64,000 nt of DNA from Candidatus Omnitrophota bacterium. GTDB lineage: Bacteria; Omnitrophota; Gorgyraeia; B26-G9. Positions within the stretch are counted from its first letter, which is position 1. Each line of letters starts with the position of its first letter. The notes under the pieces are model-generated. The model saw only the letters and a program-made list of their open reading frames with translations, was not told the origin of the DNA and searched no databases. Location of the stretch: contig JAHITY010000118.1 of the NCBI GenBank assembly GCA_018817165.1, forward strand, positions 6,526 to 70,525, written 5' to 3'. Shown piece after piece: positions 1-47,511 of this stretch. Position numbers and translations under genes: made by a program.

Positions 1-3000
1 CTGGTTCGATTCAGAATATTTCGATGACATATTCAATCAATGGCGGATCAACCTATCCTAATGTTATCGCTGCTTCTGTAAACGCATCTTTGGGGGCTTA
101 TCCATGGGCAATTCCCGACGCGATCGGCAATCAGGTGAGAGTAAGAATAACGGATACAGCTAATTCAACGGTTTATGACAGTTCTGATGCTAATTTCTCA
201 ATCAAAGGTGTATTGCATCTAGATACGCCAAATGGCGGAGAAGTGCTGGAAGTTGGCTCAAGCCGAAATATAACCTGGACAGTTACTGGTTCAATTTCCA
301 ATGTTAAATTGGAATATTCAGTTGATGCCGGGGCAACTTATCCGAATGTGATCACAGCATCTTTGAACGCGGCTTTAGGCACATATGCTTGGAGTGTGCC
401 GGATAATTTGACTACACAGGCTAGAGTGAAGATAACCAATCTATCAGATCCAACTGTATATGATCAGTCAGATGCTGATTTTGATATTATTGGTCAGCTG
501 ATTATTTCAGCGCCAAATGGCGGGGAAGTTTGGCCAGTAGGTACATCCCAAGCAATTTCTTGGGTAACCATGGGTTCAATTGTCGATGTTAAATTAGATC
601 TATCGACAAATGGCGGAGTTACTTATCCCACGGTTATAACAGCAAGCACAGCGGCGAATATTGGTTCATATAGCTGGATGATTCCGGACGCGATATCGAT
701 TGCTGCCCGGATAAAAATATCGGATATCAGTAATCCATCGGTAGTTAATGATGTATCTGACGCGAATTTCAAAATCAGAGGTAATCTGACATTAACCTAT
801 CCAAATGGCGGAGAAGTTTTGCTGATAAATGATAATCGAAATATTACCTGGACACGCTTTGGTTCAATTGTTAACGCGAGAATCGATTATTCGAAAGACG
901 GGGGAGGAACATTCCCCTACTCGATTATTGGTTCAGTAAACGCTGCATTGCAGACTTATGCTTGGAATGTGCCGGATGACCCAGGAACCTTGATCAGAGT
1001 GAAAATCGCGGACGCGGCGGATTTATCTGTATATGATGTTTCTGACGGAAACTTCATTATTCGCGGTGGATTCAGCATTATTACTCCAAATGGCGGCGAG
1101 CAATGGACAGTTAATTCAGTGCATGATATTACATGGACAACATTTGGAACGATAACGAATGTGCGTTTATCGTATTCAAGTAATAATGGTTCTAATTGGA
1201 CATTGATTACTGCTACAGTTCCTAATATTGATTTGTATTCATGGACAGTCCCGGATAGAATCTCTGAGCAATGTCTGGTAAGAGTATCCGATGTTAATGA
1301 CAGCGATGCGAATGATCTATCAAATGCCGCATTTAAAATCATTGGAACTTTGACATTGACAGCGCCAAATGGGGCAGAGCAATGGGGTGTTGCTACAGCC
1401 CAGAATATTAGCTGGACAATGAATGGAACAATCGCTAATGTGAAATTAGAATATTCAACTAATAGCGGAGCAACATATCCGAATTTGATCATCGCCTCAG
1501 CAGCCGGCGCGCCGCTAAATTATGTTTGGACAATTCCGGACGCGATTTATAATACTTTGAGAGTAAGAGTTTCTGATGTTTTGGACGTGAATGTTTATGA
1601 TACATCAGATGCTGATTTTAAAATCAAAGCTGATTTTACTTTATTGGTGCCAAATGGCGGAGAAACATGGGTAGTAAATTCCGCTCAAACCATATCCTGG
1701 ACTTCATCAGGAACAGTACCGAATATCAGACTGGATTATTCCTCTAATGCGGGTGCAAGCTGGACTGTAATATCATTGTCCCTGGCTAATGCAGGGTCAT
1801 ATTCCTGGACAGTTCCGGATGCTATTTCTAGCCAATGTAAGATCAAGGTAGCTAATGCGGCTGATACCAGTGCTTATGATGAATCAAATAATAGTTTCAA
1901 GATCAGAGGTGATTTGATCTTAACCGCGCCAAATGGCGGAGAAACATGGGCTGTGGGCGGTGTAAGGGTTATTACTTGGAATAGAGTCGGATCAATTGCT
2001 AATATATTGGTTGAATACTCAGATAATGGCGGAACAAATTTTGTGCCGATCATTGCTTCCACCCCTAATACCGGATCATATGCTTGGACAGTACCGGATT
2101 CAATTACAACTCAGGCTTTAGTGAGAATCACTAATCTTGCTGATCTAACGGTAACGGATACTTCGGCAGCGGTATTTAAAATCCAAGGCAGTTTCATGAT
2201 TAGCTCCCCAAATGGCGGCGAAGGCTGGAGAGTTGGAACTAATCAGAATATTAATTGGACCTGGAATGGAACATTACCGTTTGTTAAATTGGAATATTCA
2301 ATTAATAGCGGATCTACCTATAATTTAATAGCGGATAATTTACCGAATGTGGGAACCTATTCATGGTTAATTCCAGATGCTGTAGCCGGAACTTGTAGAA
2401 TAAAAGTATCTGATCCTAATGATTCACAGGCTTATGATATATCCAATGGTGATTTTCGGATCCGCTGCGGATTTACGCTGAGTACGCCAAATGGCGCGGA
2501 ACAATGGAGAGTCGGTTCAGTGCGTAATATTACTTGGGCCAGCGTGGGAACAGCGCCAACAGTTACTTTGCAGTATTCTCGCGATGATTTTGTAACTGAT
2601 ATCCAGCCGATTGTCAGCAATCAGGTAAATGTCGGCAGTTATGCTTGGACAATTCCGGATGCAATATCAGATAATGTGAAAGTTAAAGTACTTGATTCCA
2701 ATGATATCGGAGCTGCGGATTCTTCTAATGCTGTTTTTAGAATTACCGGAGATTTTACAGTAATTGCGCCAAATGGCGGGGAAATGTGGAATGTAAATGA
2801 TATTGAAAACATTACCTGGACCTGGCTGGGAACAATGTCCCAGGTGAGAATTGAATACTCAGTTGACGGTGGCGCAAGTTATCCGAATATTATTTCAGCA
2901 ACGAATAATGACGGAGTATATGAATGGCTTGTTCCGGATAGTATTACCGCCCAATTAAGAGTGCGGGTCAGTGATTTAGCAGATTCAACGGCTTATGATA

Positions 3001-6000
3001 CATCCAATGGCAATGCTAAGATCCGAGCGTTTTTTACAATGCTTACTCCTAATGGTTCAGAAATTATGACAGTTAACAATAGCTATGGAATCACCTGGAA
3101 TAGTGTAGGCACAGTGGCTAATGTTGATCTGCATTATTCAACAGACGATTTCTTGACTGCTAATGGGATTGTCGGCTCAACGCCAAACGATGGGGCTCAT
3201 ACCTGGACTGTTCCAGATTCAATATCAACTACAGTTAAAGTAAGAGTCAAGAGTTCGACGGATAGCGATGCTTACGATATTTCCAATGCTAATTTTAAAA
3301 TCCGAGGCGCGTTTACAGTTACTTCGCCGAATGGCGGGGAATTATGGGCAATTAATCAGGTCAGAAATATTACTTGGAACACCACTGGAACAATTGCTAC
3401 TGTAAGAATTATGTATTCAACTAATTCAGGAGCAACTTATCTAAATACAGTTACCAACAGCGCGGTTAATACTGAGACCTATGCTTGGACAGTTCCGGAT
3501 ACGGCTACAGCAAACGCTCGGATCAGAGTGCTGGATGCCGCGGATGCAACGGTGTATGATGATTCAGATGCTAATTTCAGAATGCAGGGATTCTTTACTT
3601 TGAATGCGCCAAATGGCGGGGAGTATTGGATTGTTGGCTCTAGTCATAATATTACCTGGACATGGGGCGGAACTTTAGCCAGCGCAAAACTTTCTTATTC
3701 AACAGACAGCGGCATAACTTATCCGAATGTGATTAATGCCGCAGCCCCAAATGGCGCGGGAAGCGGCGGAACATTTAATTATGCTTGGACAGTACCGGAT
3801 AATATTTCCCTAACAGTCAAAGTAAAGGTGGAAGATCCAAATGATAATACTGTATTTGATGTATCTGATGATGATCTGACTATTGGCGGACAGATTATTC
3901 TTACCAGCCCGAATGGCGGAGAACGCTGGATAACCCGAGAATCGCACCCAATTACCTGGACAACAGCGGGAACCGTTCCGATTGTGGATATTAGATATTC
4001 CAAAGATAATTTTGGATTGAATAATATCTCAATAGTCAGCGGACAAGTTAATATTAATTCATATGCTTGGAGTGTGCCGGATGACAGATCATCTACTGTG
4101 AAAGTAAGAATACTTGATCCGCGTGACCCAACCAATACCTATGATGATTCAAACGCTAATTTTAAAATCGATTATTATACTATTTCGTTTGAGATCCGTG
4201 ATTTGATCACCAATGAAGAATTGTCAACTTTAACGGTTGACGCGTCATCAAATTTAGGTGATATCTGGGCAACAGCAACCATGCCGAATAATCCAGGAGC
4301 GCCTTTAGGTTCACCAGTTACAGTTGATTTACCGTATGGCTTATGGACAGCGGTATGGTCAAAAGTTAGTTTTGGAGATAAACAGGCAAGCTTTGAAGTC
4401 AACGCGGATAAAGCAATAGATACTCTGTATATGGAAACAACAGTTATTCATATATGGCGGGCATATTCAGAAGTTACCTATGAGGCAACCAATGATGTGC
4501 TGAAAATAGCTTCCTGGCTAGAAAGAGATGGATATGCGGTATCTGGCGCGGAAACAGTAACGATTGATGTATATAATGATGATGGAGTTTTGGTACACAG
4601 CTTATTTTCCGATACTCCGAATGCCGCGGGATTTTTCAATTTAAAATGGAATGCTCCCACTGGGTTATTGCCATCAGTAGTATATACGGTTGTTACTAAA
4701 ATAACTAATGCTTCAGGCGCGGAATTTAAGACTCCGACTTCATTTAATATTACAGAAACTCAACAGCTGGTTGCTACTCAAGCAGCGATGGAAAGCATGC
4801 GTGATGTTACATTGCCGGCTTTTCAATCAGGAGTTGAAGCAACGATCAATGCGGGTATTGCTGAACAAAAAACATTGATTGATACTAAGATGACTGAGCA
4901 GACAAATATTATTGATACAAAAACAACACAAATGCAACAGTCGGTTGATGCTAGTATGACGGCTTTTGAAACCAGATCGCAGGTCGCGATTGATCAGTTA
5001 CAAGAAGGTGCTGACCAGGCAACTGCGGCTGGAGCAGAGCTGGAAACTATTGCTAAACGTCAATCAGGGGAATTGATTCTGCCGACAACCGTACTGACCG
5101 GCGGAACAGTTAATATTCGTTTTAGAATAGCTTCGGGATTAATGCCATTGATGGATGTTATTAGTTATGATGGAACAATGCTGAGAAATCAACAGATATT
5201 GACTGAATCAACATCAGTTGCTGGTTTATACGGATATGATTTGTATATTGATGGTACTCAGTTTAAACCAGGTAAAGCGTTTACAGTAGTTGTAACGGAA
5301 AATTCAACCGGAAATTTACAGGCTGGGTCTGTAATGGTTGAGTCAACATCATTAACATCGATTGAAGGTTTAGCATCGTCTATCCCTCAGGTTAAATCGA
5401 TTGCGGATCAGACTTTGCAAGCGGTTGACGCATTGAAAAATACATTAGCAACCGGAGGAGATATCGGAAAGGCGCTTTCTAGTTTACAAGATTCTGTTGA
5501 TGATCTGCCAGCTTTAATGGCTAAAGAAGGCCCCAGCGCGAAAATGGCGGAAGATATTAATGCTTTGATGGAGCGCTTACAGGCTTTTGCCGGTGAAGAA
5601 GGTTATGATATTTCAGCGATGGTTGAGGACGCATTGAGTAATTCACCGACAATGAAAGAAATCAAGAGCAGAACGGAAAGTATTAAGAGTATTGTTAATT
5701 TCTTGCAGCAGTTGTTTGAGCACAAGTTTGGCGGAATGGAAGATGAGCCAATGGTTTCAACCTCATTGTCAACTGGTAGTTTGGTGGTAAATGTGGTTGC
5801 GGCTAATCCATCGAGCACTATGTCGCAGATCACAAAGGTAAAAGTTTATTTACCTAAAGAAGTCACTCCGAATGATATAATGGATACAGGCGGATTGGAT
5901 GTTGAGTTTGACGCGAATCAATCAATATACTATGTATTTAAAGATAGAATAGAACTTGCTCCTAAAGAAGTTCGCGTATTCAAAGTTGAGATAGAAGATA

Positions 6001-6464
6001 TCTGGATTATTCCGCAGACAAGTTTGGATGTGCTTAAACTTAGAGCAACGAAACTTGCCAGTGCTCTGGAATCAACAGAGTATGCACAAGCAACTAGTAA
6101 GCTAGCTGAGAAAACATATGCAGCGGTTGATGAAGTAATTGCCAAGCAGAATGATATTACGCTGAGCCGAGAGCAGCATATTGGGGCTTATCGGGCAAAT
6201 ATTCTGATGATTGATAAGCTAAAAGCAGAACTTACAGATATGGAAAAATTGATGATTGTCAATCCCGATGAGGTAGGCGCTCTTTCACCGGCAATGACTT
6301 GGAAGATCATTATTATCGTAATACTGTTTATCGGATTGCTGGCAGTGGTATTCTTCTTTACTTGGTATCGCAAAGCTGGATTAACGCAGGATGTGCTTTC
6401 TAAAGCAAAACAGTTTTCTTTTCCTGAAGAAGGGGACACTGAAAAGGAAAAAGAAAAGAAATAG
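1..6464 (+). CDS. Giant repetitive cell-surface/adhesin-like protein. It is 5'-partial because the ORF is open to the window start. It has at least 15 tandem ~94-aa Ig-like repeats resembling Kre9/KNH-type domains, then beta-rich and coiled-coil regions, then a C-terminal TM helix with a charged KEKEKK tail.
   Basis: ORF 24..6464 stays open upstream in the same frame, and the first residues GSIQNIS fit the repeat. The repeat unit is PNGGE-W-VG-I-W-G-V-L-YS-DGG-T-Y-W-VPD-YD-SD-F-I, recurring 14 times in full with a ~282-288 bp DNA period. The repeats have diverged. The hydrophobic stretch WKIIIIVILFIGLLAVVFFFTWY lies near the C-terminus. Confidence 0.8.
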   Translation, partial: GSIQNISMTYSINGGSTYPNVIAASVNASLGAYPWAIPDAIGNQVRVRITDTANSTVYDSSDANFSIKGVLHLDTPNGGEVLEVGSSRNITWTVTGSISNVKLEYSVDAGATYPNVITASLNAALGTYAWSVPDNLTTQARVKITNLSDPTVYDQSDADFDIIGQLIISAPNGGEVWPVGTSQAISWVTMGSIVDVKLDLSTNGGVTYPTVITASTAANIGSYSWMIPDAISIAARIKISDISNPSVVNDVSDANFKIRGNLTLTYPNGGEVLLINDNRNITWTRFGSIVNARIDYSKDGGGTFPYSIIGSVNAALQTYAWNVPDDPGTLIRVKIADAADLSVYDVSDGNFIIRGGFSIITPNGGEQWTVNSVHDITWTTFGTITNVRLSYSSNNGSNWTLITATVPNIDLYSWTVPDRISEQCLVRVSDVNDSDANDLSNAAFKIIGTLTLTAPNGAEQWGVATAQNISWTMNGTIANVKLEYSTNSGATYPNLIIASAAGAPLNYVWTIPDAIYNTLRVRVSDVLDVNVYDTSDADFKIKADFTLLVPNGGETWVVNSAQTISWTSSGTVPNIRLDYSSNAGASWTVISLSLANAGSYSWTVPDAISSQCKIKVANAADTSAYDESNNSFKIRGDLILTAPNGGETWAVGGVRVITWNRVGSIANILVEYSDNGGTNFVPIIASTPNTGSYAWTVPDSITTQALVRITNLADLTVTDTSAAVFKIQGSFMISSPNGGEGWRVGTNQNINWTWNGTLPFVKLEYSINSGSTYNLIADNLPNVGTYSWLIPDAVAGTCRIKVSDPNDSQAYDISNGDFRIRCGFTLSTPNGAEQWRVGSVRNITWASVGTAPTVTLQYSRDDFVTDIQPIVSNQVNVGSYAWTIPDAISDNVKVKVLDSNDIGAADSSNAVFRITGDFTVIAPNGGEMWNVNDIENITWTWLGTMSQVRIEYSVDGGASYPNIISATNNDGVYEWLVPDSITAQLRVRVSDLADSTAYDTSNGNAKIRAFFTMLTPNGSEIMTVNNSYGITWNSVGTVANVDLHYSTDDFLTANGIVGSTPNDGAHTWTVPDSISTTVKVRVKSSTDSDAYDISNANFKIRGAFTVTSPNGGELWAINQVRNITWNTTGTIATVRIMYSTNSGATYLNTVTNSAVNTETYAWTVPDTATANARIRVLDAADATVYDDSDANFRMQGFFTLNAPNGGEYWIVGSSHNITWTWGGTLASAKLSYSTDSGITYPNVINAAAPNGAGSGGTFNYAWTVPDNISLTVKVKVEDPNDNTVFDVSDDDLTIGGQIILTSPNGGERWITRESHPITWTTAGTVPIVDIRYSKDNFGLNNISIVSGQVNINSYAWSVPDDRSSTVKVRILDPRDPTNTYDDSNANFKIDYYTISFEIRDLITNEELSTLTVDASSNLGDIWATATMPNNPGAPLGSPVTVDLPYGLWTAVWSKVSFGDKQASFEVNADKAIDTLYMETTVIHIWRAYSEVTYEATNDVLKIASWLERDGYAVSGAETVTIDVYNDDGVLVHSLFSDTPNAAGFFNLKWNAPTGLLPSVVYTVVTKITNASGAEFKTPTSFNITETQQLVATQAAMESMRDVTLPAFQSGVEATINAGIAEQKTLIDTKMTEQTNIIDTKTTQMQQSVDASMTAFETRSQVAIDQLQEGADQATAAGAELETIAKRQSGELILPTTVLTGGTVNIRFRIASGLMPLMDVISYDGTMLRNQQILTESTSVAGLYGYDLYIDGTQFKPGKAFTVVVTENSTGNLQAGSVMVESTSLTSIEGLASSIPQVKSIADQTLQAVDALKNTLATGGDIGKALSSLQDSVDDLPALMAKEGPSAKMAEDINALMERLQAFAGEEGYDISAMVEDALSNSPTMKEIKSRTESIKSIVNFLQQLFEHKFGGMEDEPMVSTSLSTGSLVVNVVAANPSSTMSQITKVKVYLPKEVTPNDIMDTGGLDVEFDANQSIYYVFKDRIELAPKEVRVFKVEIEDIWIIPQTSLDVLKLRATKLASALESTEYAQATSKLAEKTYAAVDEVIAKQNDITLSREQHIGAYRANILMIDKLKAELTDMEKLMIVNPDEVGALSPAMTWKIIIIVILFIGLLAVVFFFTWYRKAGLTQDVLSKAKQFSFPEEGDTEKEKEKK

Positions 6465-6471
6465 TGATCAA

Positions 6472-6674
6472 AGGACTCCGAAATGACTGCTAGGCCGCAG
6501 TCATTTTGGACTAAATTCGCGCAGGCTGACTTGACGTCACAAAAAACGTTCCGTAAGTCAGGCGAAATAATAATGATTCCAAAAGTGCCTGCTAGGCCGC
6601 AGTCATTTTGGACTAAATTCGCGCAGGCTGACTTGACGTCACAAAAAACGTTCCGTAAGTCAGGCGCTCATTTT
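6472..6674 (+). repeat. Family A structured repeat, a tandem pair of copies 1 and 2, immediately after the giant gene stop
   Basis: Two near-identical ~100-nt units (6472-6564 and 6569-6674). Each has hairpin 1 (ccRaaa..gctaggccgcag..tttYgg) and hairpin 2 (gcgcaggctgacttgacg..loop..cgtaagtcaggcgc). Confidence 0.85.
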
Positions 6675-7131
6675 AAAATGTCCGAAGGACGAAAAAGCAA
6701 AAGCTGCGGGACGAAGGACGCAAAAACATGAAAGCGCTTGGCTGATGGCAAAAATTCTCTTTGAGCGGCGCTTTCGAACTTAATTTTGACAAGGATGTCA
6801 AAATAGTGAGAACGCGCGGCTGGGCCTGCACGACGCAGGCTCAGGCTTAGCGAAAAGATGTGTTTTTGCCTAATACGCACGACTTACGACGCATTTTTTT
6901 TAAAAAAGTATATCGTATTGAGTATAGGGTTTAGAGTTTTTAAAAAGTATCCTTGTCACATAACGGCGGGACAGGCAACTATATTAAGACAAAACATTAG
7001 ATTATAGGTGTAACAAGAAGCACGAATAATGAGCACTCGTTTATTTGCTAAGAAGGTGGATTTTTTCGTCTCTCGTTCTTCGTCTTAGCGAAGCGCTCGT
7101 TTTTCGGCTTCAAAGGGGGCAAAGGATTGCA

Positions 7132-7635: not shown

Positions 7636-7726
7636 AGGATATAATCGCGCAATAAGTTTATTTGTGTTGGATGCGGTCAAATAATGACTTATTAATACTT
7701 TTTCGGTATAATAAGAAAGACGTGTT

Positions 7727-7880
7727 GACACTGGGCAAGGTTTAATGGGAACGAAGCCCGTATCGGTAAAGTTTAACGGTTTAGGCTAAAACAATAAATT
7801 TTAATACGGCAGACGTTACCGCAAGACGAAACGGGCATCGTAACCTTGACCGCAACATTTTAAAGTTGTAATTGTAAACA
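7727..7880 (+). repeat. Family B structured repeat, copy 1, between atpE and atpF
   Basis: gacactgggcaaggttta..acgaagcccgtatcggtaa..~60 nt..gacgttaccgcaagacgaaacgggcatcgtaacc. Outer stem gcccgt/acgggc, inner stem cggtaa/ttaccg. Confidence 0.8.
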
Positions 7881-7935
7881 GGCCTTTGTTAGAGTTTACA
7901 TAAAAAAACTGATTTGATAACCATAGGGGTGCTAA

Positions 7936-10135: not shown

Positions 10136-10164
10136 AAGCAATTAGTAATTTGTACAATAACAAA

Positions 10165-10328
10165 GATGTGTTGATACTCGGCAAGGTTTAACGGTAACGA
10201 AGCCCGTATCGGTAATGTTAAACGGTTTAGGCTAAAAACAATAAATTTTAATACGACAGACGTTACCGTAAGCCGAAACGGGCATCGTTACCCTAATCGT
10301 AACCGTTTAAAGTTGTAAATGTAAATCT
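10165..10328 (+). repeat. Family B structured repeat, copy 2, between atpA and atpG
   Basis: About 85% identical to copy 1 over ~155 nt, including the gatgtgttgatactcggcaaggttta head. Confidence 0.8.
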
Positions 10329-10496
10329 GACTTTGTTACAGTATAAATAATTTCTAATGGCAGTTACTAAAAAGAGAAAAGATGTAAAAAATAATAGGCA
10401 AACAAGGACTGTTTTTGCTTTTGAATTTTTTGATCAGGGGTTTTTTAGGTTTTAGAAATTAGGTGTTCTGAGAGAACAGGGAACGGGGGGTTTGCG

Positions 10497-24501: not shown

Positions 24502-24610
24502 TAATAATAATGATTCCGAAAGTGTCTGCTAGGCCGCAGCCATTTCGGACTAAATTCGCGCAGGTTGACTTGACGTCGTGAAGAACACTCCGTAAGTCAT
24601 GCGCTCATTT
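24502..24610 (+). repeat. Family A structured repeat, copy 3, in the tpiA 5' leader
   Basis: Shares ~105 nt with copies at 6472-6674, 42917-43023 and 47034-47134. It ends gcgctcattt directly before the AAGGAG RBS. Confidence 0.8.
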
Positions 24611-24622
24611 AAGGAGAATATA

Positions 24623-27159: not shown

Positions 27160-27290
27160 CGGAAAGGGTAGTCGGTGACGAAGCCCGTATCGGTAACGGT
27201 CACGGTTAAAAATAATGAATTTTAAGCCGAAAGACGTTGCCCTAAAACGAAACGGGTATCGTAACCTTAACCATAACCTTTTAAAAATGA
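27160..27290 (+). repeat. Family B structured repeat, copy 3, between the ATPase gene and pilT
   Basis: gacgaagcccgtatcggtaa ... cgaaacgggtatcgtaacc cores shared with 7727-7880, 10165-10328 and 58990-59112. Confidence 0.75.
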
Positions 27291-27303
27291 AGGGGGTGAA
27301 AAC

Positions 27304-28368
27304 ATGGTAGATATTGGAGAACTATTACAGCTATGTGTTAAGCATAATGCTTCGGATTTGCATTTAACTGTAGGTAAACCGCCAACGCTGCGCATTGACG
27401 GATCATTGATGTCTTTAAATTATGAACCGCTGGGGCATGAAGAAACTGAGGGATTGATGAAGTCACTGACCAGTAATGATAATCAGCGGCGGATTCAGGA
27501 AGTGGGGGGAGTTGATTTTGGTTTTGCGTTTGAAAAAATAGCCAGATTCCGTGTGTCTGTTTATAAACAAAAAGGACATTATGGTTTGACTTTGCGTCTA
27601 ATTCCCACTCATTTGCTTAGCTTTCAAGAAATTGGAGTTAGCGATGTGGTCAAGCAGTTGCTTTATCGTCCTCGGGGCTTAATTTTAGTTACCGGACCTA
27701 CAGGGTCTGGAAAAACCACAACTTTAGCAACAATGACGGATTTTATAAATACTGAGCGCGATGCGCATATTATTACAATAGAAGATCCAATAGAATATTA
27801 TCATACGCATAAAAAAGGGATTATTACGCAAAGAGAATTAGGCGTAGATGTGCCTAGTTTTAGTGAAGCCTTGATAAAAGGCTTGCGTCAAAATCCTGAT
27901 GTAATCCTAGTTGGTGAAATGCGGGACTTAGCAACTATTGAAGCGGCAATTTTAGCTGCGGAGACAGGCCATTTGGTTTTGGCGACTTTACATACAACCA
28001 GCGCGGCAAGAACTGTAGACAGAATCATTGATGTTTTTCCTCCTAATCAACAAGAACAGATAAGGACACAGTTATCTACTTCAATATTAGCGGTAATTTC
28101 GCAGCAATTAATTCCTAAAGCTTCTGGCCGAGGTCGAATCGCGGCTTTTGAGCTGATGATTAATACATCTTCGATTCAAAATCTTATTAGAGAAAAGAAA
28201 ACATATAGAATTACTTCTGATTTGCAGACTGGGGCAAAATATGGTATGAAGACATTTGATTCTTCTTTATATGAATTATATTCAAATGGCACAATTCGCT
28301 CAGAAGATGCGATTGATAAGGCATTTGACCAAGATGCTATGCGAGCAAAAGTCGAAGGCAAACTATAA
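27304..28368 (+). CDS. pilT: PilT twitching-motility (retraction) ATPase
   Basis: Lacks an N-terminal domain. [31 protein letters not shown] and the [11 protein letters not shown]-type motif are present. Confidence 0.85.
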
Positions 28369-39337: not shown

Positions 39338-40750
39338 ATGAAAGTATTATTTTGTAGTTCAGAAGTTGTGCCTTTTGCGAAAACCGGTGGATTAGCTGAT
39401 GTTGCTGGAACTTTACCTCCTGAACTTGCAAATTTAGGGGTAAATATAAAAGTTGTTTTACCTTATTATAAAAGTATTGATTCTAAGAAATTTGAAATTA
39501 AAAAAATAGATAAAGATACCTCAGTTGCAGTTATTCAGAATAATGTTGAGGTTTATTTTATAGAGAATAAAAGATATTTTGACCGAGCAAATCTTTACCA
39601 ATATAACGGAGTAGATTATCGAGATAATTTGGAAAGATTTACATATTATTGTCAGCAAACATTAAGATTAGCTAAAAAGATTAAATTCAAGCCAGATATT
39701 ATTCATTGCAATGATTGGCAAAGTGCTTTAATCCCGATTTATTTAAAAACTATTTATAAAGATGATGCTTTTTTTAAAAAAACCAAAACTGTTTTTACAA
39801 TCCATAATTTGGGGTATCAAGGTCTTTTTTCCAAAGAAGATTTTTCGGTGACGGGACTTGACTATGATGTGTTTTCAATGGAGGGGTTGGAGTTCTATGG
39901 GAGGATAAATCTGCTTAAAGGCGGTTTATTGTTTTCCGATAAAATTACTACAGTGAGTTCCACCTATGCTGATGAAATTCAAACTCCGCAATTTGGCTGC
40001 GGATTAGAAGGGGTGTTGCTGAAAAGAAAAAATGATTTATCTGGAATATTAAACGGTATAAATTGTCATGATTGGGATCCAACGCAAAATAAAACACTAA
40101 CAAAAAATTATGGACCGGATGCGATTGCTGGCAAGTATCATAATAAAATTGATCTGCAGAAAATTTGCAAATTAAAAGTCAGTAAAAATATTCCCTTGCT
40201 GGGCATAATCACTAGATTGGCTGATCAAAAAGGACTAGATATCTTAGCGGAAGTTATTGATAAAATAGTTCAGATGCCGATTCAGTTTGTTTTACTTGGT
40301 ACCGGGGATCCTAAATATCATAAATTATTCGAGAATATAAAAAATAAGTATAGAAACACCTCGATACATCTTAGTTTTGATGCAAAATTAGCATATAAAA
40401 TTTATGCGGGTTCAGATATTTTCTTAATGCCTTCTTATTATGAACCGTGCGGGTTGGGGCAGCTAATAAGTCTTAATTTCGGCACAATTCCTTTGGTGCG
40501 AAAGATCGGAGGTTTAGCCGATACGGTTGTTGATTATAATCCTTTTACTAAACAAGGAAACGGTTTTGTGTTTGATAATTATCAAGCAGGGGCATTGCTG
40601 GAAGCAATAAAAAGAGCATTATGTGTTTATAATGACAGCGAGACCTGGAACAAGCTTGTTGCCGGAGCAATGAAATGCAATTTTTCCTGGGAAAAATCAG
40701 CAAAAGAGTATAATAAGCTTTATAAGAAACTTTTAAGTTCTAAAAAATAA
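39338..40750 (+). CDS. glgA: Glycogen synthase (ADP-glucose type)
   Basis: MKVLFCSSEVVPFAKTGGLADV start. The ORF track's 39311 start is probably too far upstream. Confidence 0.85.
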   Translation: MKVLFCSSEVVPFAKTGGLADVAGTLPPELANLGVNIKVVLPYYKSIDSKKFEIKKIDKDTSVAVIQNNVEVYFIENKRYFDRANLYQYNGVDYRDNLERFTYYCQQTLRLAKKIKFKPDIIHCNDWQSALIPIYLKTIYKDDAFFKKTKTVFTIHNLGYQGLFSKEDFSVTGLDYDVFSMEGLEFYGRINLLKGGLLFSDKITTVSSTYADEIQTPQFGCGLEGVLLKRKNDLSGILNGINCHDWDPTQNKTLTKNYGPDAIAGKYHNKIDLQKICKLKVSKNIPLLGIITRLADQKGLDILAEVIDKIVQMPIQFVLLGTGDPKYHKLFENIKNKYRNTSIHLSFDAKLAYKIYAGSDIFLMPSYYEPCGLGQLISLNFGTIPLVRKIGGLADTVVDYNPFTKQGNGFVFDNYQAGALLEAIKRALCVYNDSETWNKLVAGAMKCNFSWEKSAKEYNKLYKKLLSSKK

Positions 40751-40764
40751 AAAGAATTTATTTT

Positions 40765-41376
40765 ATGGATAGTAAATTAATAGTAATCGGTTTGACTGGC
40801 GGATTAGCCAGTGGAAAAAGTACCGCAGCTAAAATGTTTACTGCTTTTGGCGCAATAATTTTGGATGCGGATAGGATTGGGCATAAAACTCTAGCGAAAA
40901 ATTCTAAATGTTTTAAAAAGATAGTAAAGCGATTTGGTAATAGGATTTTAGATTGCAATGGAACAATCAATAGAGGGAGTTTAGCCAAAGTCGCATTTAA
41001 AAATAGTGCTAACCAAAAAGCCCTTTGCGCGATAATTCATCCTTGGATTTTTGAATACATTGATAAAAAAATAAAACTTTATCAAAAAAATAAAGATGTG
41101 AGATTGCTTATTGTGGAGGCAGTATTACTTATTGAATCCGGTTTGTTTGAGAAAATGGATAAGAACATTGTTGTAAAATCAAATCAGGCGCAGCAGCTTT
41201 TAAGAGCAAAACTTAATCGGAATATGGACAAGGAAGCAGCAAAGCAGAGAATGCAATATCAATTAAAACTAGCTGATAAAATCAAGTACGCTGATTATGT
41301 TATTGATAATCGCGGTACTTTTAAAAATACAGAATCTCAAGTAAAAAAAATAGTAGTTAAATTGTTAAATAATTGA
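40765..41376 (+). CDS. coaE: Dephospho-CoA kinase
   Basis: IGLTGGLASGKST P-loop, ~200 aa. Confidence 0.8.
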   Translation: MDSKLIVIGLTGGLASGKSTAAKMFTAFGAIILDADRIGHKTLAKNSKCFKKIVKRFGNRILDCNGTINRGSLAKVAFKNSANQKALCAIIHPWIFEYIDKKIKLYQKNKDVRLLIVEAVLLIESGLFEKMDKNIVVKSNQAQQLLRAKLNRNMDKEAAKQRMQYQLKLADKIKYADYVIDNRGTFKNTESQVKKIVVKLLNN

Positions 41377-41383
41377 TTAAATA

Positions 41384-42820
41384 ATGTTTGGGGCAGTTAG
41401 ATGCTTCAAACGAAAAGCGAGGGAGTGTATGAAACCACAGAAACCAGAGAGAGCAAAACCAACCAGGGCCGATAGTAATTCTCGGTATCCAATGCATAGT
41501 TCTAGACCTAAACCGTTACAGACAGAAGATCGTAAACCAATGGAAAGACATCAGACTGATGGTGGAATATATATTGGTGAGCTTAAAAAAATGAGCGGTG
41601 CCGGATTAATAAAAATCGCGAAAGAATTAAAAATTGCCGGAATTAGCGGGGTGCGTAAACAGGATCTTATTTTTAAAGTTTTGCAAGCGCAAGCGGAAAA
41701 AGCTGGTAATATGTTTGGCGAAGGAATACTGGAAATATTGCCGGATGGATTTGGTTTTTTAAGATCACCTAATTACAACTATCTGCCTTGTCCTGATGAT
41801 ATTTATATTTCTCCGAGTCAAATCAGAAAATTTAATTTAAAAACCGGTGATACAGTTAGTGGGCAGATTCGTCCACCTAAAGAAGGTGAGCGTTATTTTG
41901 CGCTGCTAAAGGTCGAAGCAGTTAATTTTGAAGCTCCGGAAAAAGTTAAAGACAAAATTCTTTTTGATAACCTTACTCCGCTTTATCCTGAGTCACGTTT
42001 AATCCTGGAAACTGATTCGGAAGATGTCTCGACTAGAATTATGGATTTATTTACCCCGATCGGAAAAGGACAGCGGGGTTTAATTGTCGCTCCTCCGTAT
42101 AGCGGAAAAACTGTTTTATTACAGAAAATAGCAAATAGTATAATTGCCAATAATGAGGATGTTGTGCTTATTGTTTTATTGATTGACGAGCGTCCGGAAG
42201 AAGTTACGGATATGCAGCGTTCAGTTAAAGCTGAAGTAATCAGCTCTACTTTTGATGAGCCGCCAGAGAGGCATGTTCAGGTGGCGGAAATTGTTTTGGA
42301 AAAAGCAAAGCGATTGGTTGAATGTGGTAGAGATGTCGTTATATTATTAGATAGTATAACTCGTTTGGCTCGAGCGCATAATACGGTTGTTCCGCATTCT
42401 GGAAAAATATTATCGGGCGGTGTTGATTCAACTGCTTTGCAAAAACCAAAACGTTTTTTTGGAGCTGCGCGGAATATTGAAGAGGGCGGATCATTGACTA
42501 TTCTGGCAACAGCCTTGGTTGACACAGGAAGCAGAATGGATGAAGTTATTTTTGAAGAATTTAAAGGTACCGGTAATATGGAATTACAGCTTGATCGTAA
42601 TTTATTTCAGAGACGGATTTACCCGGCGATTGATATTAAACGTTCGAATACGCGTAAAGAAGAATTACTGGTCGATCCAGAAGAATTAAAGCTTATTTGG
42701 ATTTTACGTAAAGCGCTTAATGAGCTGAGCAGTGTGGAAGCAATGGAGCTGCTTACTACAAAACTTAAAAAAGTATCGACAAACGCGGAATTCTTGCTTT
42801 CTCTGTCAAAAAGCAGATAA
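41384..42820 (+). CDS. rho: Transcription termination factor Rho with a basic N-terminal extension
   Basis: The N-terminal domain, an RNA-binding OB domain, and an ATPase core with Walker A/B and Q/R loops. The ~50-aa Lys/Arg/Pro-rich leader is atypical, so the start is uncertain. Confidence 0.85.
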
Positions 42821-42916
42821 ATAATCGCAAGGTATTAACAATGGTTGACGAAAAGTCTATTTTCTGATAAAATTTCTAGTTCAGAACCGAAGATGTGAAC
42901 AATCGAAAATATTTGA

Positions 42917-43023
42917 ATAATAATGATTCCGAAAGTGCCTGCTAGGTCGCAGTCATTTCGGACTAAATTCGCGCAGGCTGACTTGATGTCGCAATAATGC
43001 TCCATAAGTCAGGCGCTCATTTA
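42917..43023 (+). repeat. Family A structured repeat, copy 4, in the rpmE 5' leader
   Basis: The same two-hairpin element. It ends gcgctcattt directly before the AACAGGAGG RBS of rpmE. Confidence 0.8.
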
Positions 43024-43036
43024 ACAGGAGGGAAAT

Positions 43037-43234
43037 ATGAAGAAGAAAATACATCCAGAATACAATCAAAGCACGATAACTTGTGCTTGTGGTGAAGTAA
43101 TGAGTACAAATAGTACAAAACAGGACATGCGTGTAGAAATATGCAGCAGTTGTCATCCTTTTTTTACTGGAAAACAAAAAATGCTTGATACTGCCGGAAG
43201 AGTAGAGCGATTTAAGAAGCGATATGCTAAATAA
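43037..43234 (+). CDS. rpmE: Ribosomal protein L31
   Basis: 65 aa, MKKKIHPEY...CxxC...[10 protein letters not shown]. Confidence 0.85.
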
Positions 43235-44312
43235 TAAGCTTTTATTTGGTAAACTCGATGAGTTTGTGGATCGTTTAAAAGTTTTAGAAAATCAAATGAG
43301 TGATCCAGAGATAATAAAAAATGTTTCTGGATATCGGAAATTAGCAATAGAAAGGTCTGATCTTTTAGATAAGATCGCTTTGTTTAGTAATTATAAAAAT
43401 AATTACGAGGAGGTTAATCGTTTAAAATCAATCATTCAAGAGTCGACTGAAGAGGAAGATTTTCTTGAGCTGGTTGAAGAAGAATTAAAAGTTTTAAAAG
43501 GAAAACAAAATAAACTTATTGAAAATATTGAAGAATTTTTGATTGAGCCTGATCCGAATGATGATAAAGATATTATTATTGAAATCCGGGCCGGGACTGG
43601 CGGTGAAGAAGCCGCGCTATTTGCCGCGGATCTTTATAGAATGTATGCTTATTATGCTGAAAAGTGTGGGATCAAAGTCGAAGTAATAAATTCTAGCCCC
43701 ACGCCGATCGGTGGGTTTAAAGAAATAATTTTTTCCTTAGAGGGAAGTAAAGTTTATAAACGGTTTAAATTTGAATCGGGGATTCATCGAGTTCAAAGGG
43801 TTCCGAGTACTGAAACAGCAGGGAGAATTCATACTTCAGCGGTTAGTGTGGCAGTTTTAGCGGCGGCAGAGGAAATGGATTTAGAAATAAATATTAATGA
43901 TCTAAAAGTGGATGTATACCGTTCTTCCGGCGCTGGTGGCCAGAGCGTAAATACAACAGACTCAGCAGTAAGAATCACGCATTTGCCTACAGGGGTAGTA
44001 GTTACTTGTCAAGATGAACGCTCTCAGATTAAAAATAAAGCTAAAGCACTTAAAGTTTTAAGAGCAAAGCTATATGATCATGCTCAATTAGAGCAGGCTT
44101 CGAAAATCAGCCAAGATCGAAAGAAACAGGTTGGATCCGGAGATAGAAGTGAAAAAATAAGGACTTATAATTTTCCTGATAGACGGGTTACTGATCATCG
44201 GATTTCCTTAACTTTGTATAAAATTGAACAAATTTTAGCTGGAGATTTAGATGAACTTATTTCAGGATTGCAATCAGCGGAAAAAGAGCTTAAACTTAAA
44301 CAGAATAAATAA
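43224..44312 (+). CDS. prfA: Peptide chain release factor 1
   Basis: The GGQ motif ([23 protein letters not shown]), the PxT-type region, and a length of 362 aa. Confidence 0.9.
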
Positions 44313-44415
44313 TGAATTAGTGATATTGGCTCAATAATATTTAGTCCAAAGGCATGCTTATTTATTGCACCAATGGGGTGTAATTTTTTTTTATAATACA
44401 AGGTATGAGGAAAAA

Positions 44416-44847
44416 ATGAAATTTTCTGGATATAACTTTGTGTTAATCTCCGTAGTTTTTAGTATATTAATTAGTAACAAAGTAATGGCGCAGAATGTTA
44501 AAAAAGCCGATCAAGGTAGAGTTATTTATGAACAGCAAATGTCTTATGATGATGCGCGTAAAATGCAGGAAATAGTGGCGCAACTAGAAAAAGAAAAAAA
44601 TAATAATGATGGATCAGCAGTATCAAGTAATCCATTAATTGACGCTATGAGTGATGGCTCAGCTGATAATTCAAAAATGCTTGATATGCTGAAGATTTTA
44701 ATTAATACAATGGGTATTGATGTTTTGCCGGAAGATTTAGTTGCACAGAAAACAGGCATAGAGACGGATAACTCAGAAAAAAGCGGTGTGAATAATTTCA
44801 AGAAGTGGGACGACACACATAATTGGAAGAAGCTAAGAATTGAGTAA
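44416..44847 (+). CDS. Hypothetical secreted protein
   Basis: Signal peptide MKFSGYNFVLISVVFSILISNKVMAQ. No recognisable domain. Confidence 0.4.
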   Translation: MKFSGYNFVLISVVFSILISNKVMAQNVKKADQGRVIYEQQMSYDDARKMQEIVAQLEKEKNNNDGSAVSSNPLIDAMSDGSADNSKMLDMLKILINTMGIDVLPEDLVAQKTGIETDNSEKSGVNNFKKWDDTHNWKKLRIE

Positions 44848-44882
44848 AATTAGGGACCGATTAGCTTGAATCGTAAAATATA

Positions 44883-45776
44883 ATGAATAAACAAGATACT
44901 ACTATCGGGAAAGCTCTAAGTGCAGCAGAGTGTTTGTTATCACAGGCTGGCATTGTTTCAGCAGAAAAAGAAGCGGTAATATTACTAGGTTTTTTTTTAG
45001 ATTTAAAGCGAATTGACGTGTATTTTATTAGAAATGAAATTTTAAATTCAGATATTTTGATTGAATTTCAATCTGCGGTAAATAAAAGATGCGCTTATTT
45101 CCCCCTGCAGTATCTTACAGGGGAAACTTTTTTTTATGGTTTAAGACTGGTAATGCGGGAGGGAGTTTTTATTCCCAGGCCTGAAACAGAAATATTGGTA
45201 GAGAAAATAATTAAAATAGCGGAGAAGAATTTTCCAAACGGCTTGAAAATATTAGAGTTATGTACAGGTTCCGGTAATATTTCAGTTTCATTGACAAAAA
45301 ACATACAATATTGTACAATTATTAGTTCAGATATAAACAAAAAAGCTTTGGACTTATCGCGACATAATGCTTGTATCCATGGAGTAAGTGAGCAAATTAA
45401 ATTTATCCAAAGTGATTTGTTTGAGGCTTTAGATTCTCAAGATTATCAACAGGAAAGTAATCGGTTTGAGATTATAGTGGCTAATCCTCCTTATGTTAGT
45501 TTTGAGCAGATGAATGAATTACCGGCGGATGTGCTTAATGAACCTAAAGAGGCACTTTATGGGGGTAATGACGGTTTAGATTTTTATCGGAAAATTATTG
45601 GACAAACAAGAAATTTTTTAAAAAAAAGCGGTTATATTGCTTTTGAATTTGGTGATAAGCAAGCCAAAGATATTGAACAAATTATACAAGTAAGTAAGCT
45701 TTTTGATCAAACAGAGTTTTTTGCTGATTTAAACGGAATATACCGATTTGTAATCGCTAGGCGTATAAATGGATAA
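44883..45776 (+). CDS. prmC: Release-factor glutamine N5-methyltransferase (HemK/PrmC)
   Basis: NPPY motif (IVANPPYV) and a SAM-binding fold. Follows prfA. Confidence 0.8.
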   Translation: MNKQDTTIGKALSAAECLLSQAGIVSAEKEAVILLGFFLDLKRIDVYFIRNEILNSDILIEFQSAVNKRCAYFPLQYLTGETFFYGLRLVMREGVFIPRPETEILVEKIIKIAEKNFPNGLKILELCTGSGNISVSLTKNIQYCTIISSDINKKALDLSRHNACIHGVSEQIKFIQSDLFEALDSQDYQQESNRFEIIVANPPYVSFEQMNELPADVLNEPKEALYGGNDGLDFYRKIIGQTRNFLKKSGYIAFEFGDKQAKDIEQIIQVSKLFDQTEFFADLNGIYRFVIARRING

Positions 45777-47034
45777 AATTATTATTGAAGGTGGAGTGCC
45801 GTTAAAAGGTAAGATTGAAGTTAGTGGCGCGAAAAACGCGGCATTGCCGATATTGGCGGCAACTCTGTTAACAGAAGAAAAATGTATTATTAAAAATGTG
45901 CCGGTACTAAGGGATGTTATGACTATGCTGAGAATTCTGCGTAGTTTAGGCGTTAAGACCCAAATGGAAGGCAATAAAGTAATTATAGAACCAAAAAGAT
46001 GCAATAGTTATATTGCTGATTACAAATTAGTCAGTACTATGAGAGCGTCTATTTGTGTGTTAGGCCCGTTGTTAGCTAAACAGAAACAGGCAAAGGTTTC
46101 AATGCCAGGTGGGTGTATTATTGGGCAGCGACCTGTTGATCTGCATATAAAAGGTTTGAGTGCTTTAGGCGCAAAGATCAAGATAGAACATGGGTATATT
46201 GATGCGCGGGCAAAGCAATTGCGCGGCGCAAATATTTTTCTTGGCGGAGCATATGGTTCTTCGGTTCTGGCTACATCTAATGTGCTGATGAGTGCATGTT
46301 TGGCTAAAGGAATAACCTTAATTGAAAATGCTGCTTGTGAGCCGGAAATTGTTGATCTGGCAAATTTTTTAATTAAGATGGGTGCAAAAATAAAAGGGCA
46401 GGGAACACCTCTGATTACGATTGAAGGTGTGAAAAAATTAAGCGGTGCGACGCATACTGTAATCCCGGACAGGATAGAAGCCGGAACATTTATTCTTGCT
46501 GCGATAATTACCGGCGGGGATTTAATTATTGAAAAAGCTCGCCCGGATCATTTATCCGCTTTATTTGATAAATTAAAACAGGTTGGGTGTAGCATTACGG
46601 TTCGGGGTGATACTATTTACGCTAAAAGAAAAACTGCTTTTTTAAAGCCTGTTGATATAACAACTATGCCTTATCCGGGTTTTCCGACTGATATGCAGGC
46701 TCAAATGATGGCATTAGCATCAATCAGCGATGGAATAAGTGTTTTGACGGAAAAGATATTTCCCGATAGGTTTATGCATGTTAGTGAGTTAAACCGCATG
46801 GGAGCAGGAATTTTTTTAGAAGGGGCAAGCGCTATTGTTAAAGGCGTAAAACGTCTGAGCGGTGCGCCGGTTATGGCTTCAGATTTAAGAGCTTCAGCTG
46901 CGCTGATTCTGGCTGGTTTGGTTGCTAAAGGTAAGACAGAAATTTCTCGTATTTATCATTTAGATCGAGGTTATGACAAGATAGAAGAGAAATTGCAAAA
47001 AGTTGGGGCAAGAATTAAAAGAGTAAAAGAATAA
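45769..47034 (+). CDS. murA: UDP-N-acetylglucosamine 1-carboxyvinyltransferase
   Basis: 421 aa with the EPSP-synthase fold and an active-site Cys in VSMPGGCIIGQRPVDLH. Confidence 0.9.
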   Translation: MDKIIIEGGVPLKGKIEVSGAKNAALPILAATLLTEEKCIIKNVPVLRDVMTMLRILRSLGVKTQMEGNKVIIEPKRCNSYIADYKLVSTMRASICVLGPLLAKQKQAKVSMPGGCIIGQRPVDLHIKGLSALGAKIKIEHGYIDARAKQLRGANIFLGGAYGSSVLATSNVLMSACLAKGITLIENAACEPEIVDLANFLIKMGAKIKGQGTPLITIEGVKKLSGATHTVIPDRIEAGTFILAAIITGGDLIIEKARPDHLSALFDKLKQVGCSITVRGDTIYAKRKTAFLKPVDITTMPYPGFPTDMQAQMMALASISDGISVLTEKIFPDRFMHVSELNRMGAGIFLEGASAIVKGVKRLSGAPVMASDLRASAALILAGLVAKGKTEISRIYHLDRGYDKIEEKLQKVGARIKRVKE

Positions 47035-47134
47035 ATGATTCCGAAAGTGTCTGCTAGGCCGCAGCCATTTCGGACTAAATTCGTGTTGGCTGACTTGACG
47101 TCGCGTAAATGCTCCGTAAGTCAGACACTCATTT
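47034..47134 (+). repeat. Family A structured repeat, copy 5, between murA and rpsP
   Basis: Carries paired GCGC to GTGT (5' arm) and GCGC to ACAC (3' arm) changes that keep the hairpin-2 pairing. Confidence 0.8.
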
Positions 47135-47244
47135 AAAGAGTAAAAGTATTATCCACGCCGAAAAACGGCGGGATTAAATTCGCACAGATAATTTATATTG
47201 CTAGAAACCACATAAATTATGTGCTCATTTGAGGAGGTGAAAAA

Positions 47245-47511
47245 GTGGCTGTTATTATTCGTTTATCGAGACTAGGAACAAAAGGAAAACCGCATCATAA
47301 GATTGTGGTTATAGACCAACATAGACCGAGAGATGGACGTTTTATTGAAGAAATTGGTTATTATAATGCTTCGATTAAACCAACATTGATGGAAGTTAAA
47401 GCTGATCGTGCTTTATATTGGATGAGTGTTGGAGCAAAACCAACTGGAACTGTAAAAAGAATATTTAAAAATAAAAAAATTCCTTTAAATGCTAAAAAGG
47501 AGACAAAATAG
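47245..47511 (+). CDS. rpsP: Ribosomal protein S16 (GTG start)
   Basis: MAVIIRLSRLGTKGKPHHKIVV. Confidence 0.85.
   Translation: MAVIIRLSRLGTKGKPHHKIVVIDQHRPRDGRFIEEIGYYNASIKPTLMEVKADRALYWMSVGAKPTGTVKRIFKNKKIPLNAKKETK

Follow-up and report, generated by a model that had tools for sequence, protein, structure and literature searches.

A dispersed family of two-hairpin palindromic repeats at gene boundaries in the Omnitrophota

In a 64,000-nt stretch of DNA from a Candidatus Omnitrophota bacterium (contig JAHITY010000118.1, positions 6,526 to 70,525 of the forward strand; this whole stretch is hereafter called the window), several intergenic spacers are occupied by an element that folds into two hairpins. 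An earlier note described five copies of it, and alignment places all five at those positions on the + strand. Two core probes (20 and 29 nt, up to three mismatches) each match exactly these five sites, as compared with 0.01 and 0.00 matches expected from shuffled sequences; as that note held, the copies are not random repetition. A sixth, diverged copy at 47151–47231 had been missed. An unfiltered covariance model of hairpin 2 recovers six copies, all intergenic and on the + strand, and no others, the next match in the window scoring 14 bits. The best-supported description is that of a new, previously undescribed family of a known kind, the dispersed intergenic palindromic repeats, which is mobile or duplicative and yet includes many copies that are fixed and constrained. 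The copies, their parts and one associated promoter-like site are as follows.

6472..6564, + strand: copy 1, family A, truncated at its 3' end (covariance model 24 bits); hairpin 1 at ~6477–6510, TAAATTCG at 6512–6519, hairpin 2 up to ...CAGGCG at 6564
6565..6674, + strand: copy 2, family A, complete (55.3 bits); leader AAATAATAATGAT at 6565–6577, hairpin 1 at 6578–6612, hairpin 2 with flanks TAAATTCG...CTCATTT at 6614–6673
24502..24611, + strand: copy 3, family A (60.6 bits); leader at 24502–24514, hairpin 1 at 24515–24549, hairpin 2 at 24551–24611
42845..42873, + strand: sigma-70-like promoter between rho and copy 4 (TTGACG, 17 nt, TAAAAT, extended -10 TG), a match to the consensus only
42915..43023, + strand: copy 4, family A, in the putative 5' untranslated region (5' UTR) of rpmE (62.2 bits); hairpin 1 at 42928–42962, hairpin 2 at 42964–43023
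47035..47135, + strand: copy 5, family A, ~101 nt inserted in this lineage only, right after the murA stop codon TAA; ends ATGATTCC...CACTCATTTA with the short inverted repeat AATGA/TCATT, hairpin 1 at 47040–47074, hairpin 2 at 47076–47135
47151..47231, + strand: copy 6, diverged subfamily, upstream of rpsP (59.5 bits); hairpin 1 ATCCACGCCGAAAAACGGCGGGAT at 47151–47174, hairpin 2 TAAATTCGCACAG-ATAATTTAT..ATAAATTAT-GTGCTCATTT at 47175–47230

The other copies (2–6) score 55–62 bits against 24 for copy 1, which lacks CTCATTT and runs straight into the leader of copy 2. The junction that results from this truncation, GTCAGGC/AAAATAATAATGATTCC, is also present in another genome (L154). Copy 3 is followed immediately by AAGGAG, with the tpiA start at 24623, and copy 4 by the Shine–Dalgarno (SD) sequence AGGAGG 3 nt further downstream, with the rpmE ATG at 43037. 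The distance between CTCATTT and the ribosome-binding sites of tpiA and rpmE is hence 0–3 nt, not the 6–10 nt given earlier. Because of the predicted promoter at 42845–42873, copy 4 would be part of the rpmE transcript. Copy 6, which precedes GAGGAGG and the rpsP GTG start at 47245, has the flanks TAAATTCG...CTCATTT of the other copies and different hairpin sequences.

Architecture and covariation of the unit

The unit, which is ~90–130 nt long, consists of a variable hairpin 1, the conserved junction TAAATTCG, hairpin 2 and CTCATTTA. Hairpin 1 comprises 20–73 nt of free sequence upon a base that is usually A-YCCC...GGGR-T (often ATCCC-TC-G...C-TC-GGGAT). In hairpin 2, the base stem formed by TAAAT and ATTTA is followed by a TC.TC bubble, GCRC/GYGC, a bulge of 1–3 nt, a stem of ~10 bp and a variable loop. 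The invariant residues TTCG and CTCA flank hairpin 2, and the element carries three nested modules of the form 'stem / TC.TC bubble / G-C'. In family A, AATGA and TCATT provide an alternative pairing able to close the entire element.

The five copies first noted, which align with a mean column identity of 81 %, each form both stem-loops as had been predicted, with minimum free energies of -31 to -37 kcal/mol and folding z-scores of -2.5 to -4.7. RNAalifold yields 29 consensus pairs for these copies, six of which show double compensatory changes, including every example quoted in the earlier note (CCGAAA/TTTCGG vs CCAAAA/TTTTGG, ACG/CGT vs ATG/CAT, and GCGC/GCGC vs GTGT/ACAC); the hairpin-2 loop, rightly termed hypervariable, is the most variable region of the alignment. 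The same holds on a far larger scale, as in the hairpin-2 alignment of 110 copies from ~68 genomes 96.4 % of cells pair and compensatory changes are present at 18 of the 19 pairs, neither of which measures is attained by any of 500 shuffles, and pairing drops to 22–41 % once the partners are slid. The base stem covaries as well (TAAAT/ATTTA, TAAGT/ACTTA, TTAAT/ATTAA and TCAAT/ATTGA), with TCG and CTC constant. Hairpin 1 ends exactly at the T of TAAATTCG in all 71 Omnitrophota-type pattern matches checked, although the sequences are unrelated, and the 60 nt upstream of TAAATTCG have a mean folding z-score of -3.4 versus -0.13 in control segments 700 nt away; hairpin 1 thus keeps folding despite replacement of its sequence. 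The hairpins are under strong selection for their formation and are maintained by compensatory change, as the earlier note had proposed from its five copies.

Two further repeat types have a ..TTAATTCG.. junction in common with the element. The trmD–rplS spacer of locus L156 (5293–5565) contains four tandem 41-nt units, each beginning with CTTAATTCG, and locus L159 carries a different module of ~120 nt (hairpin 1, TAATTT and a GC-rich segment) upstream of rpsP and rplS, at ~3770–3890 and 5360–5480. These observations suggest a modular super-family.

Distribution, amplification and retention of copies

A scan with the pattern TAAATTCGYRY-N25-55-RYRCTCATTT, restricted to one genome per species, identified at least 119 loci, mostly in metagenome-assembled genomes (MAGs) labelled Candidatus Omnitrophota or in 'uncultured Planctomycetia/Planctomycetales' bins with the same element (L093 is among the contigs without an Omnitrophota label). 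The covariance model, a search that had been proposed earlier, shows copies to be widespread in the phylum, with 110 copies, among the matches listed, in 560,876 nt of sequence from 79 loci and ~68 assemblies. The element is accordingly present in at least ~68 Omnitrophota genomes, in which it is dispersed at a density of ~1 copy per 5–20 kb. None of 30 viral contigs that match the bare pattern passes the covariance model, and 40 non-Omnitrophota loci yield three weak matches, one of which, with hairpin 1 present, lies at 5989–6059 of locus L030, from a contig labelled Candidatus Paceibacterota (JBBDUH010000050) that may be mis-binned. Copies outside Omnitrophota labels, which look genuine and include hairpin 1, could reflect mis-binning, mislabelling or a real presence beyond the phylum. 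The suggested Rfam scan gave no family at gathering score in the whole window and in five element-bearing loci; a permissive scan of 46990–47260 produced nothing beyond a chance match of 12 bits, located on the opposite strand. Full-text searches of the literature on Omnitrophota (Omnitrophica) repeats found no description of the element.

The family amplifies within genomes, as is shown by a clean insertion, by tandem arrays and by subfamilies specific to individual genomes. The insertion is best seen in comparison with L054, a relative with 83–87 % nucleotide identity across window positions 44233–49476. Copy 5 is absent from the murA–rpsP junction of L054 and of L153, both of which have the orthologue of copy 6 only. 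The empty site of L054 reads GAATAA/AAGAATAAATG... and the filled site of the window GAATAA(ATGATTCC...CACTCATTTA)AAGAGTAAAAG..., so that the insert comprises ~101 nt with both hairpins and the ends AATGA...TCATT, placed exactly after the murA stop codon. The junction between trmD and rplS is filled in L154, L155, L157, L022 and L078 and empty, with overlapping genes, in the window, L152, L153 and L158. In L053, two antisense copies abut the stop codon of the orthologue of window open reading frame (ORF) 57419–58978, a site at which the window has none. Tandem arrays are present in L021/L075, in L154, in the window, where the period is 102 nt, and in L052, which has three copies with a 127-nt period. 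The putative terminal inverted repeats are short, being AATGA...TCATT (5 nt) in family A and ATGAG...CTCAT in some subfamilies, and the 5' end is poorly conserved. A Logan contig of the same organism (L120, SRR7067536_63), positions 1–110 of which correspond to the window from 47047 onward, begins where the assembly breaks inside copy 5, which is consistent with repeat-induced contig ends.

Several candidate details of the insertion process were rejected. The 12-nt sequence AAAGAGTAAAAG around copy 5 is not a target duplication, as its right-hand copy is orthologous to the pre-existing spacer of L054. That CTCATTTA might be an insertion target outside the element, by the logic of IS200/IS605, was an idea prompted by the truncated upstream copies of tandem arrays; it was rejected for copy 5, the empty sites of which in L054 and L152 lack CTCATTT. 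Genes bracketed by inverted copies, considered as candidate transposases, are in fact rpsD/rpsK and rplM/rpsI. A mini-palindrome, TAAAT-ACTC-ATTTA, covers the stop codon of ORF 57419–58978 in the window (58976–58989), the same site as the L053 copies; it resembles the base of hairpin 2 without the interior and could be a relic, a preferred target or a chance match.

Individual copies also stay at the same site and keep their sequence across great evolutionary distances. The syntenic block rho-rpmE-prfA-x-prmC-murA-rpsP-x-trmD-rplS-rnhB was compared in eight further genomes with S16 identities from 94 % to 64 %, making 10 genomes together with the window and L054. In eight of these 10 the element ends 8–10 nt upstream of the rpsP start, flush with AGGAGGTGA, and the other two have a tight spacer of 13–22 nt instead. 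The position is occupied by a family-A unit in L154, and in the most distant genome (L159) hairpin 1, ATCCCGCCAAAAAGCGGCGGGAT, is so near to that of copy 6 in the window that an old orthologous copy is suggested. Copy 6 and its L054 orthologue are 97.5 % identical, as against 69–83 % at third codon positions of the flanking genes, and copy 4 and its L003 orthologue are 94.3 % identical as against 63–68 %, with one compensatory change from C-G to T-A in the latter case. Identities so far above those of silent sites require purifying selection or continual gene conversion. The earlier note had set selection on structure against, on the other side, a lack of covariation or a plain miniature inverted-repeat transposable element (MITE) with terminal inverted repeats and target-site duplications. 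This opposition proves to be a false dichotomy, since signs of mobility (tandem arrays, a clean insertion and short, putative inverted ends) occur alongside structural and positional selection.

Placement against genes and strand asymmetry

Of the copies that could be classed by orientation, 69 point the same way as the neighbouring genes, 31 are antisense to both of these and 12 lie in divergent or convergent spacers. The end that touches a gene is that of hairpin 2, the hairpin-1 end lying 0–128 nt from the upstream stop codon. In 66 of 114 copies, a long ORF starts 0–37 nt past CTCATTT, usually with A(A)GGAGG immediately behind CTCATTT(A) and then the start. In ~23 copies, the start codon is located 0–6 nt past CTCATTT, which leaves no room for an SD sequence; such starts make up approximately one third of the co-oriented copies (e.g. 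rplK, rpsN, rpsJ, rplJ, thrS and aspS). According to Pfam, these genes encode S14, L11, S10, L10, ThrRS and AspRS, and the domain boundaries match the N-termini. In ~26 of 36 antisense copies, the stop codon of the converging ORF (TAA in ~21, TGA in 5) is located inside TAAATGAG, on the reverse complement.

Ribosomal-protein genes account for ~15 of 60 downstream genes; the element is enriched about nine-fold beside such genes, and many of the other neighbours are translation or central-metabolism genes, with IF3, RpoC, AcpP, GAPDH, TpiA and AccC among the downstream products. Some ribosomal-protein operons lie between two copies, the upstream one in sense and the downstream one in antisense orientation. 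Head-to-head pairs fill single spacers, in some cases around a common palindromic hairpin 1 (hairpin 2' - hairpin 1 - hairpin 2), as between rpoB and rpoC in L074 and at 4536–4708 of L064. A terminator scan of 40000–50000 in the window found no terminator-like sites coinciding with elements.

A subfamily of the type TAAGTTCGGNC...GNCCTCACTTA was noted in L074 (440–507 and 6507–6589), L105 (206–273), L110 (7671–7737) and L064 (4642–4708). All five of its copies are antisense to the flanking genes, four of the five are flush with a stop codon, and they are often head-to-head with a sense copy of the TAAAT/TTAAT type, which hints at specialization for 3' versus 5' gene boundaries.

With respect to the molecule that is read, the hairpin-2 pairs comprise 1155 Watson–Crick, 12 G.U and 8 A.C pairs in co-oriented copies and 557, 12 and 5, respectively, in antisense copies. 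For hairpin 1, folding on the antisense strand is as good as on the sense strand or slightly better. In the loop of hairpin 2, TTCG outnumbers CGAA by 34 to 3, with ratios of 15:1 in co-oriented and 14:0 in antisense copies. On the opposite strand, the TC.TC bubbles correspond to tandem G.A mismatches and the TTCG loops to C-GAA-G, both of which are features that stabilize DNA hairpins. The data do not point specifically to mRNA as the molecule read, and a folded-DNA signal remains a serious rival. The small structured RNA or leader that the earlier note offered among its options receives no specific support, as antisense copies make up ~30 % of the total, an excess of G.U pairs is lacking, hairpin 1 folds on either strand, the asymmetry follows the element and no Rfam family matches; a strand-specific structured RNA is unsupported on the first two counts already.

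Some neighbouring features of the window may be mentioned here. Copies 1 and 2 are preceded by a giant ORF (24–6464, + strand; 2146 aa inside the window) with at least 12 tandem repeats of ~279–288 nt (~95 aa) and conserved motifs such as PNGGE and YxWxVPD. The spacer of ~370 nt that follows holds a 17-codon ORF (MSEGRKSKSCGTKDAKT) at 6678–6731, 4 nt past copy 2, which is probably due to chance, and the next gene is ATP synthase epsilon-like. A second intergenic repeat family of ~50–200 nt occurs on the + strand at 7706–7903, 10152–10350, 27160–27324 and 59059–59105, each copy being upstream of a + strand gene. Its 47-nt core is 81–92 % identical and longer stretches are 61–86 % identical; it contains ...GACGTTACCG.AAG.CGAAACGGGCATCGTAACC... 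and has no Rfam match at gathering score.

Relation to known repeats and rival explanations

The closest of the three options named in the earlier note is the 'MITE-like REP'. Like the REP/BIME/REPIN sequences of Enterobacteria and Pseudomonas, which are mobilized by RAYT, an IS200/IS605-like Y1 transposase, the Omnitrophota elements are short, imperfect and exclusively extragenic palindromes in high copy number (6 in 64 kb of the window; 110 in 561 kb of related loci), which by extrapolation from local density would amount to the order of at least 100 copies per genome. They are likewise found inside operons, in both orientations, in tandem arrays and in head-to-head pairs (L074, L064 and L110), often a few nucleotides from stop codons; the known effects of REP concern mRNA stability and the translation of the upstream gene. 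They differ from REP in having two different hairpins and a conserved linker instead of a single hairpin of 20–40 nt, in lacking a GTAG-type 5' tetranucleotide and, in the sampled loci, a nearby RAYT, in the conservation of their core motifs throughout the phylum rather than the genus, and in that the majority of copies lie ahead of a start codon instead of behind a stop codon. ERIC/IRU sequences (127 bp) are similarly imperfect palindromes in transcribed intergenic regions, at a length close to the ~100–130 nt of the Omnitrophota element, with a sequence unusually conserved across distant hosts, copy numbers that vary highly between genomes, orientation-dependent effects on the flanking mRNA and no known mechanism of mobilization. 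ERIC is unrelated in sequence and forms one long hairpin, as opposed to two of which the first is hypervariable; to our knowledge, it is neither flush with ribosome-binding sites nor enriched at ribosomal-protein genes, as the Omnitrophota element is.

The Correia elements of Neisseria (NEMIS/CREE) and the MITEs RUP, BOX and Nezha share with this family a non-coding sequence of ~100–150 nt, probable inverted ends, probable insertion at TA-containing targets near genes and insertion polymorphism between strains, here apparent from copy 5 as compared with L054 and L153, from L053 as compared with the window, and from the murA/rpsP and trmD/rplS junctions across 10 genomes. Such elements are co-transcribed and their hairpins are processed, in Neisseria by RNase III. 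The terminal inverted repeat, however, is ~5 nt (AATGA/TCATT, family A) rather than the 26 bp of Correia, and the Omnitrophota family has no known parent insertion sequence and is conserved at the level of the phylum. Finally, the attC sites of integrons, which are recognized as a folded bottom strand, also conserve architecture over sequence, with a base stem, a bubble, a bulged second stem and a variable loop, and lie directly at the stop codon of the gene before them, the end of which often falls within the site. The ends TAAATTCG / CTCATTTA are not the RYYYAAC/GTTRRRY core of attC, neither an integrase nor attI was found in the sampled loci, the neighbours are syntenic core housekeeping genes, hairpin 1 is additional and 70 % of copies face downstream genes. 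The traits that set the family apart are the phylum-wide invariance of TTCG and CTCA, the hypervariable hairpin 1, placement flush with gene boundaries, the enrichment at ribosomal-protein genes and starts lacking an SD sequence that abut hairpin 2.

The explanation that we favour, with moderate confidence, is that of a REP/BIME/ERIC-like mobile palindromic family that occurs across the Omnitrophota and probably punctuates operon mRNAs as an intercistronic hairpin module, the host role being suggested by position and by analogy. A non-autonomous palindrome would have been spread by an enzyme or a repair process, and copies co-transcribed within operons would serve the host as a module that may protect or define mRNA ends and insulate the neighbouring ribosome-binding site or stop codon. 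Several points weigh against this explanation. The role at the RNA level is drawn from position only, and the gene context itself from crude ORF calls. G.U pairs are not enriched and bear no relation to the direction of transcription, and the TTCG/CGAA bias and the TC.TC bubbles keep to the strand of the element even in antisense copies, an asymmetry no less compatible with a signal in folded DNA than with one in mRNA. As for mobility, the target-site duplication at copy 5 is compatible with 0–4 nt (TA, TAA or TAAA) due to A/T ambiguity (GAATAA/AAGA as compared with GAATAA(ATGATT..CTCATTTA)AAGA). A tblastn search with two approximate Y1 transposase queries (RAYT and IS200 TnpA), covering less than 1 % of each genome, revealed no mobilizing enzyme (best E=0.7), and the sampled loci contain no autonomous element with matching ends and near-zero orphan half-sites, none of them flanking an ORF. 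Moreover, the exact conservation of TTCG and CTCA throughout the phylum is unusual for REP or MITE families.

A dedicated cis-regulatory RNA, that is, a leader in the 5' UTR or a processing signal belonging to highly expressed genes, those for ribosomal proteins included, and read on the mRNA by a conserved Omnitrophota factor such as RNase Y, RNase III or a translational regulator, would turn the multiplicity of copies into a regulon instead of a sign of mobility. Such an RNA would account for the co-orientation of ~70 % of copies, the flush contact with SD sequences or ATG codons, the enrichment upstream of genes for ribosomal proteins, IF3, RpoC, aminoacyl-tRNA synthetases, AcpP, GAPDH and TpiA, the rpsP-upstream position kept in eight of 10 genomes, conservation of orthologous copies above that of synonymous sites, the promoter-like site that places copy 4 in the rpmE 5' UTR, the presence of an RNase Y gene in syntenic loci and the hairpin-2 covariation (18 of 19 pairs, 0 of 500 shuffles), which supports a conserved secondary structure. 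It is nevertheless doubtful, given the ~30 % of copies that are oriented antisense to the genes on both sides, with a stop codon flush against them, the lack of a G.U excess and of any reversal between G.U and A.C in antisense copies, a loop and bubble asymmetry that tracks the element and not the transcript, the recent clean insertion of copy 5, the tandem arrays and genome-specific subfamilies, junctions that hold a copy in some genomes but none in close relatives of these, and the functional heterogeneity of the neighbouring genes. About equally doubtful is a host-maintained, phylum-specific gene-boundary signal, in which a conserved Omnitrophota factor, acting on folded DNA or on RNA, would read the repeated 'stem / TC.TC bubble / G-C' module and thereby punctuate operons. 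If that were true, mobility would be the means of distributing the signal, and the starts lacking an SD sequence would imply hairpin-assisted, SD-independent initiation at core translation genes or, alternatively, a G-rich arm of the upstream hairpin 1 that is bridged to the start codon.

A signal in folded single-stranded DNA or a cruciform, such as a recombination, transposition or replication site served by a strand-specific enzyme (HUH/RAYT-, attC- or primosome-site-like), is somewhat less probable still as a complete account. The TC.TC bubbles, bulged bases and variable loop would be its recognition features, and it agrees with stems that are almost purely Watson–Crick, in which G.T is about as rare as A.C, with the folding of both strands (the antisense slightly better), with the threefold module, with the 34-to-3 excess of TTCG over CGAA regardless of gene orientation, with the architectural parallel to attC and with insertion flush with TAA stop codons. 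On the other hand, the sampled loci hold no integrase, RAYT or Y1 transposase, which is a weak test, the neighbours are housekeeping genes and not cassettes, and neither the SD placement at 0–3 nt despite ~100 nt of free spacer nor the purifying selection on fixed copies would be explained. A purely selfish MITE or REP, the hairpins of which meet the needs of a transposase and the positions of which are tolerated insertions, is very unlikely. Insertion polymorphism, tandem arrays, short AATGA/TCATT ends and stop codons in both ends, which would make insertions at gene ends harmless, are as expected of it, and so is the occupation of the short spacers of compact operons; orthologous copies that are 94–97 % identical as against 63–83 % at synonymous sites, the compensatory change between orthologous copies, the retention of the rpsP position at S16 identities as low as 64 % and the related hairpin 1 that the most distant genome has there are not, nor are core motifs shared across the phylum without an autonomous partner in the sampled loci. 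Least probable, and rejected here, is an intrinsic (possibly bidirectional) terminator, a sigma-70 promoter or a boxA-like antitermination site. A hairpin with AAA upstream and TTT downstream recalls a terminator, but the tail is UCAUUUA with no U-tract of at least 5 and the scan flags no element. TAAATT is similar to a -10 box, but TAAAT is a stem rather than such a box, since it covaries with ATTTA (TAAGT/ACTTA, TTAAT/ATTAA); TTAAT, moreover, lacks the A at position 2 that is critical to a -10 box, and the variable hairpin 1 allows no conserved -35. The likeness of GCTCATTTAA to E. coli boxA (GCTCTTTAACAA) is only loose, and although elements do occur in ribosomal-protein and rpoBC operons, it is incompatible with the 30 % of antisense copies, which, like the location of elements between essential co-transcribed genes (e.g. 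rpsM–rpsK and rpoB–rpoC), speak against all three.

The phylum Omnitrophota comprises uncultivated, ultra-small bacteria that may depend on hosts, and we know of nothing reported on the control of their gene expression. Since the element is frequent, adjoins start and stop codons at core genes and is conserved above the level of synonymous sites, it offers a tangible starting point for studying how operons are organized and how mRNA is processed or translated in these bacteria. In practical terms it is a marker that breaks assemblies and could be used to flag mis-binned contigs, such as those in MAGs labelled Planctomycetia or Paceibacterota. More generally, the persistence of dispersed-palindrome motifs across an entire phylum sharpens the question raised by ERIC and REP, namely whether such families are selfish, domesticated or both.

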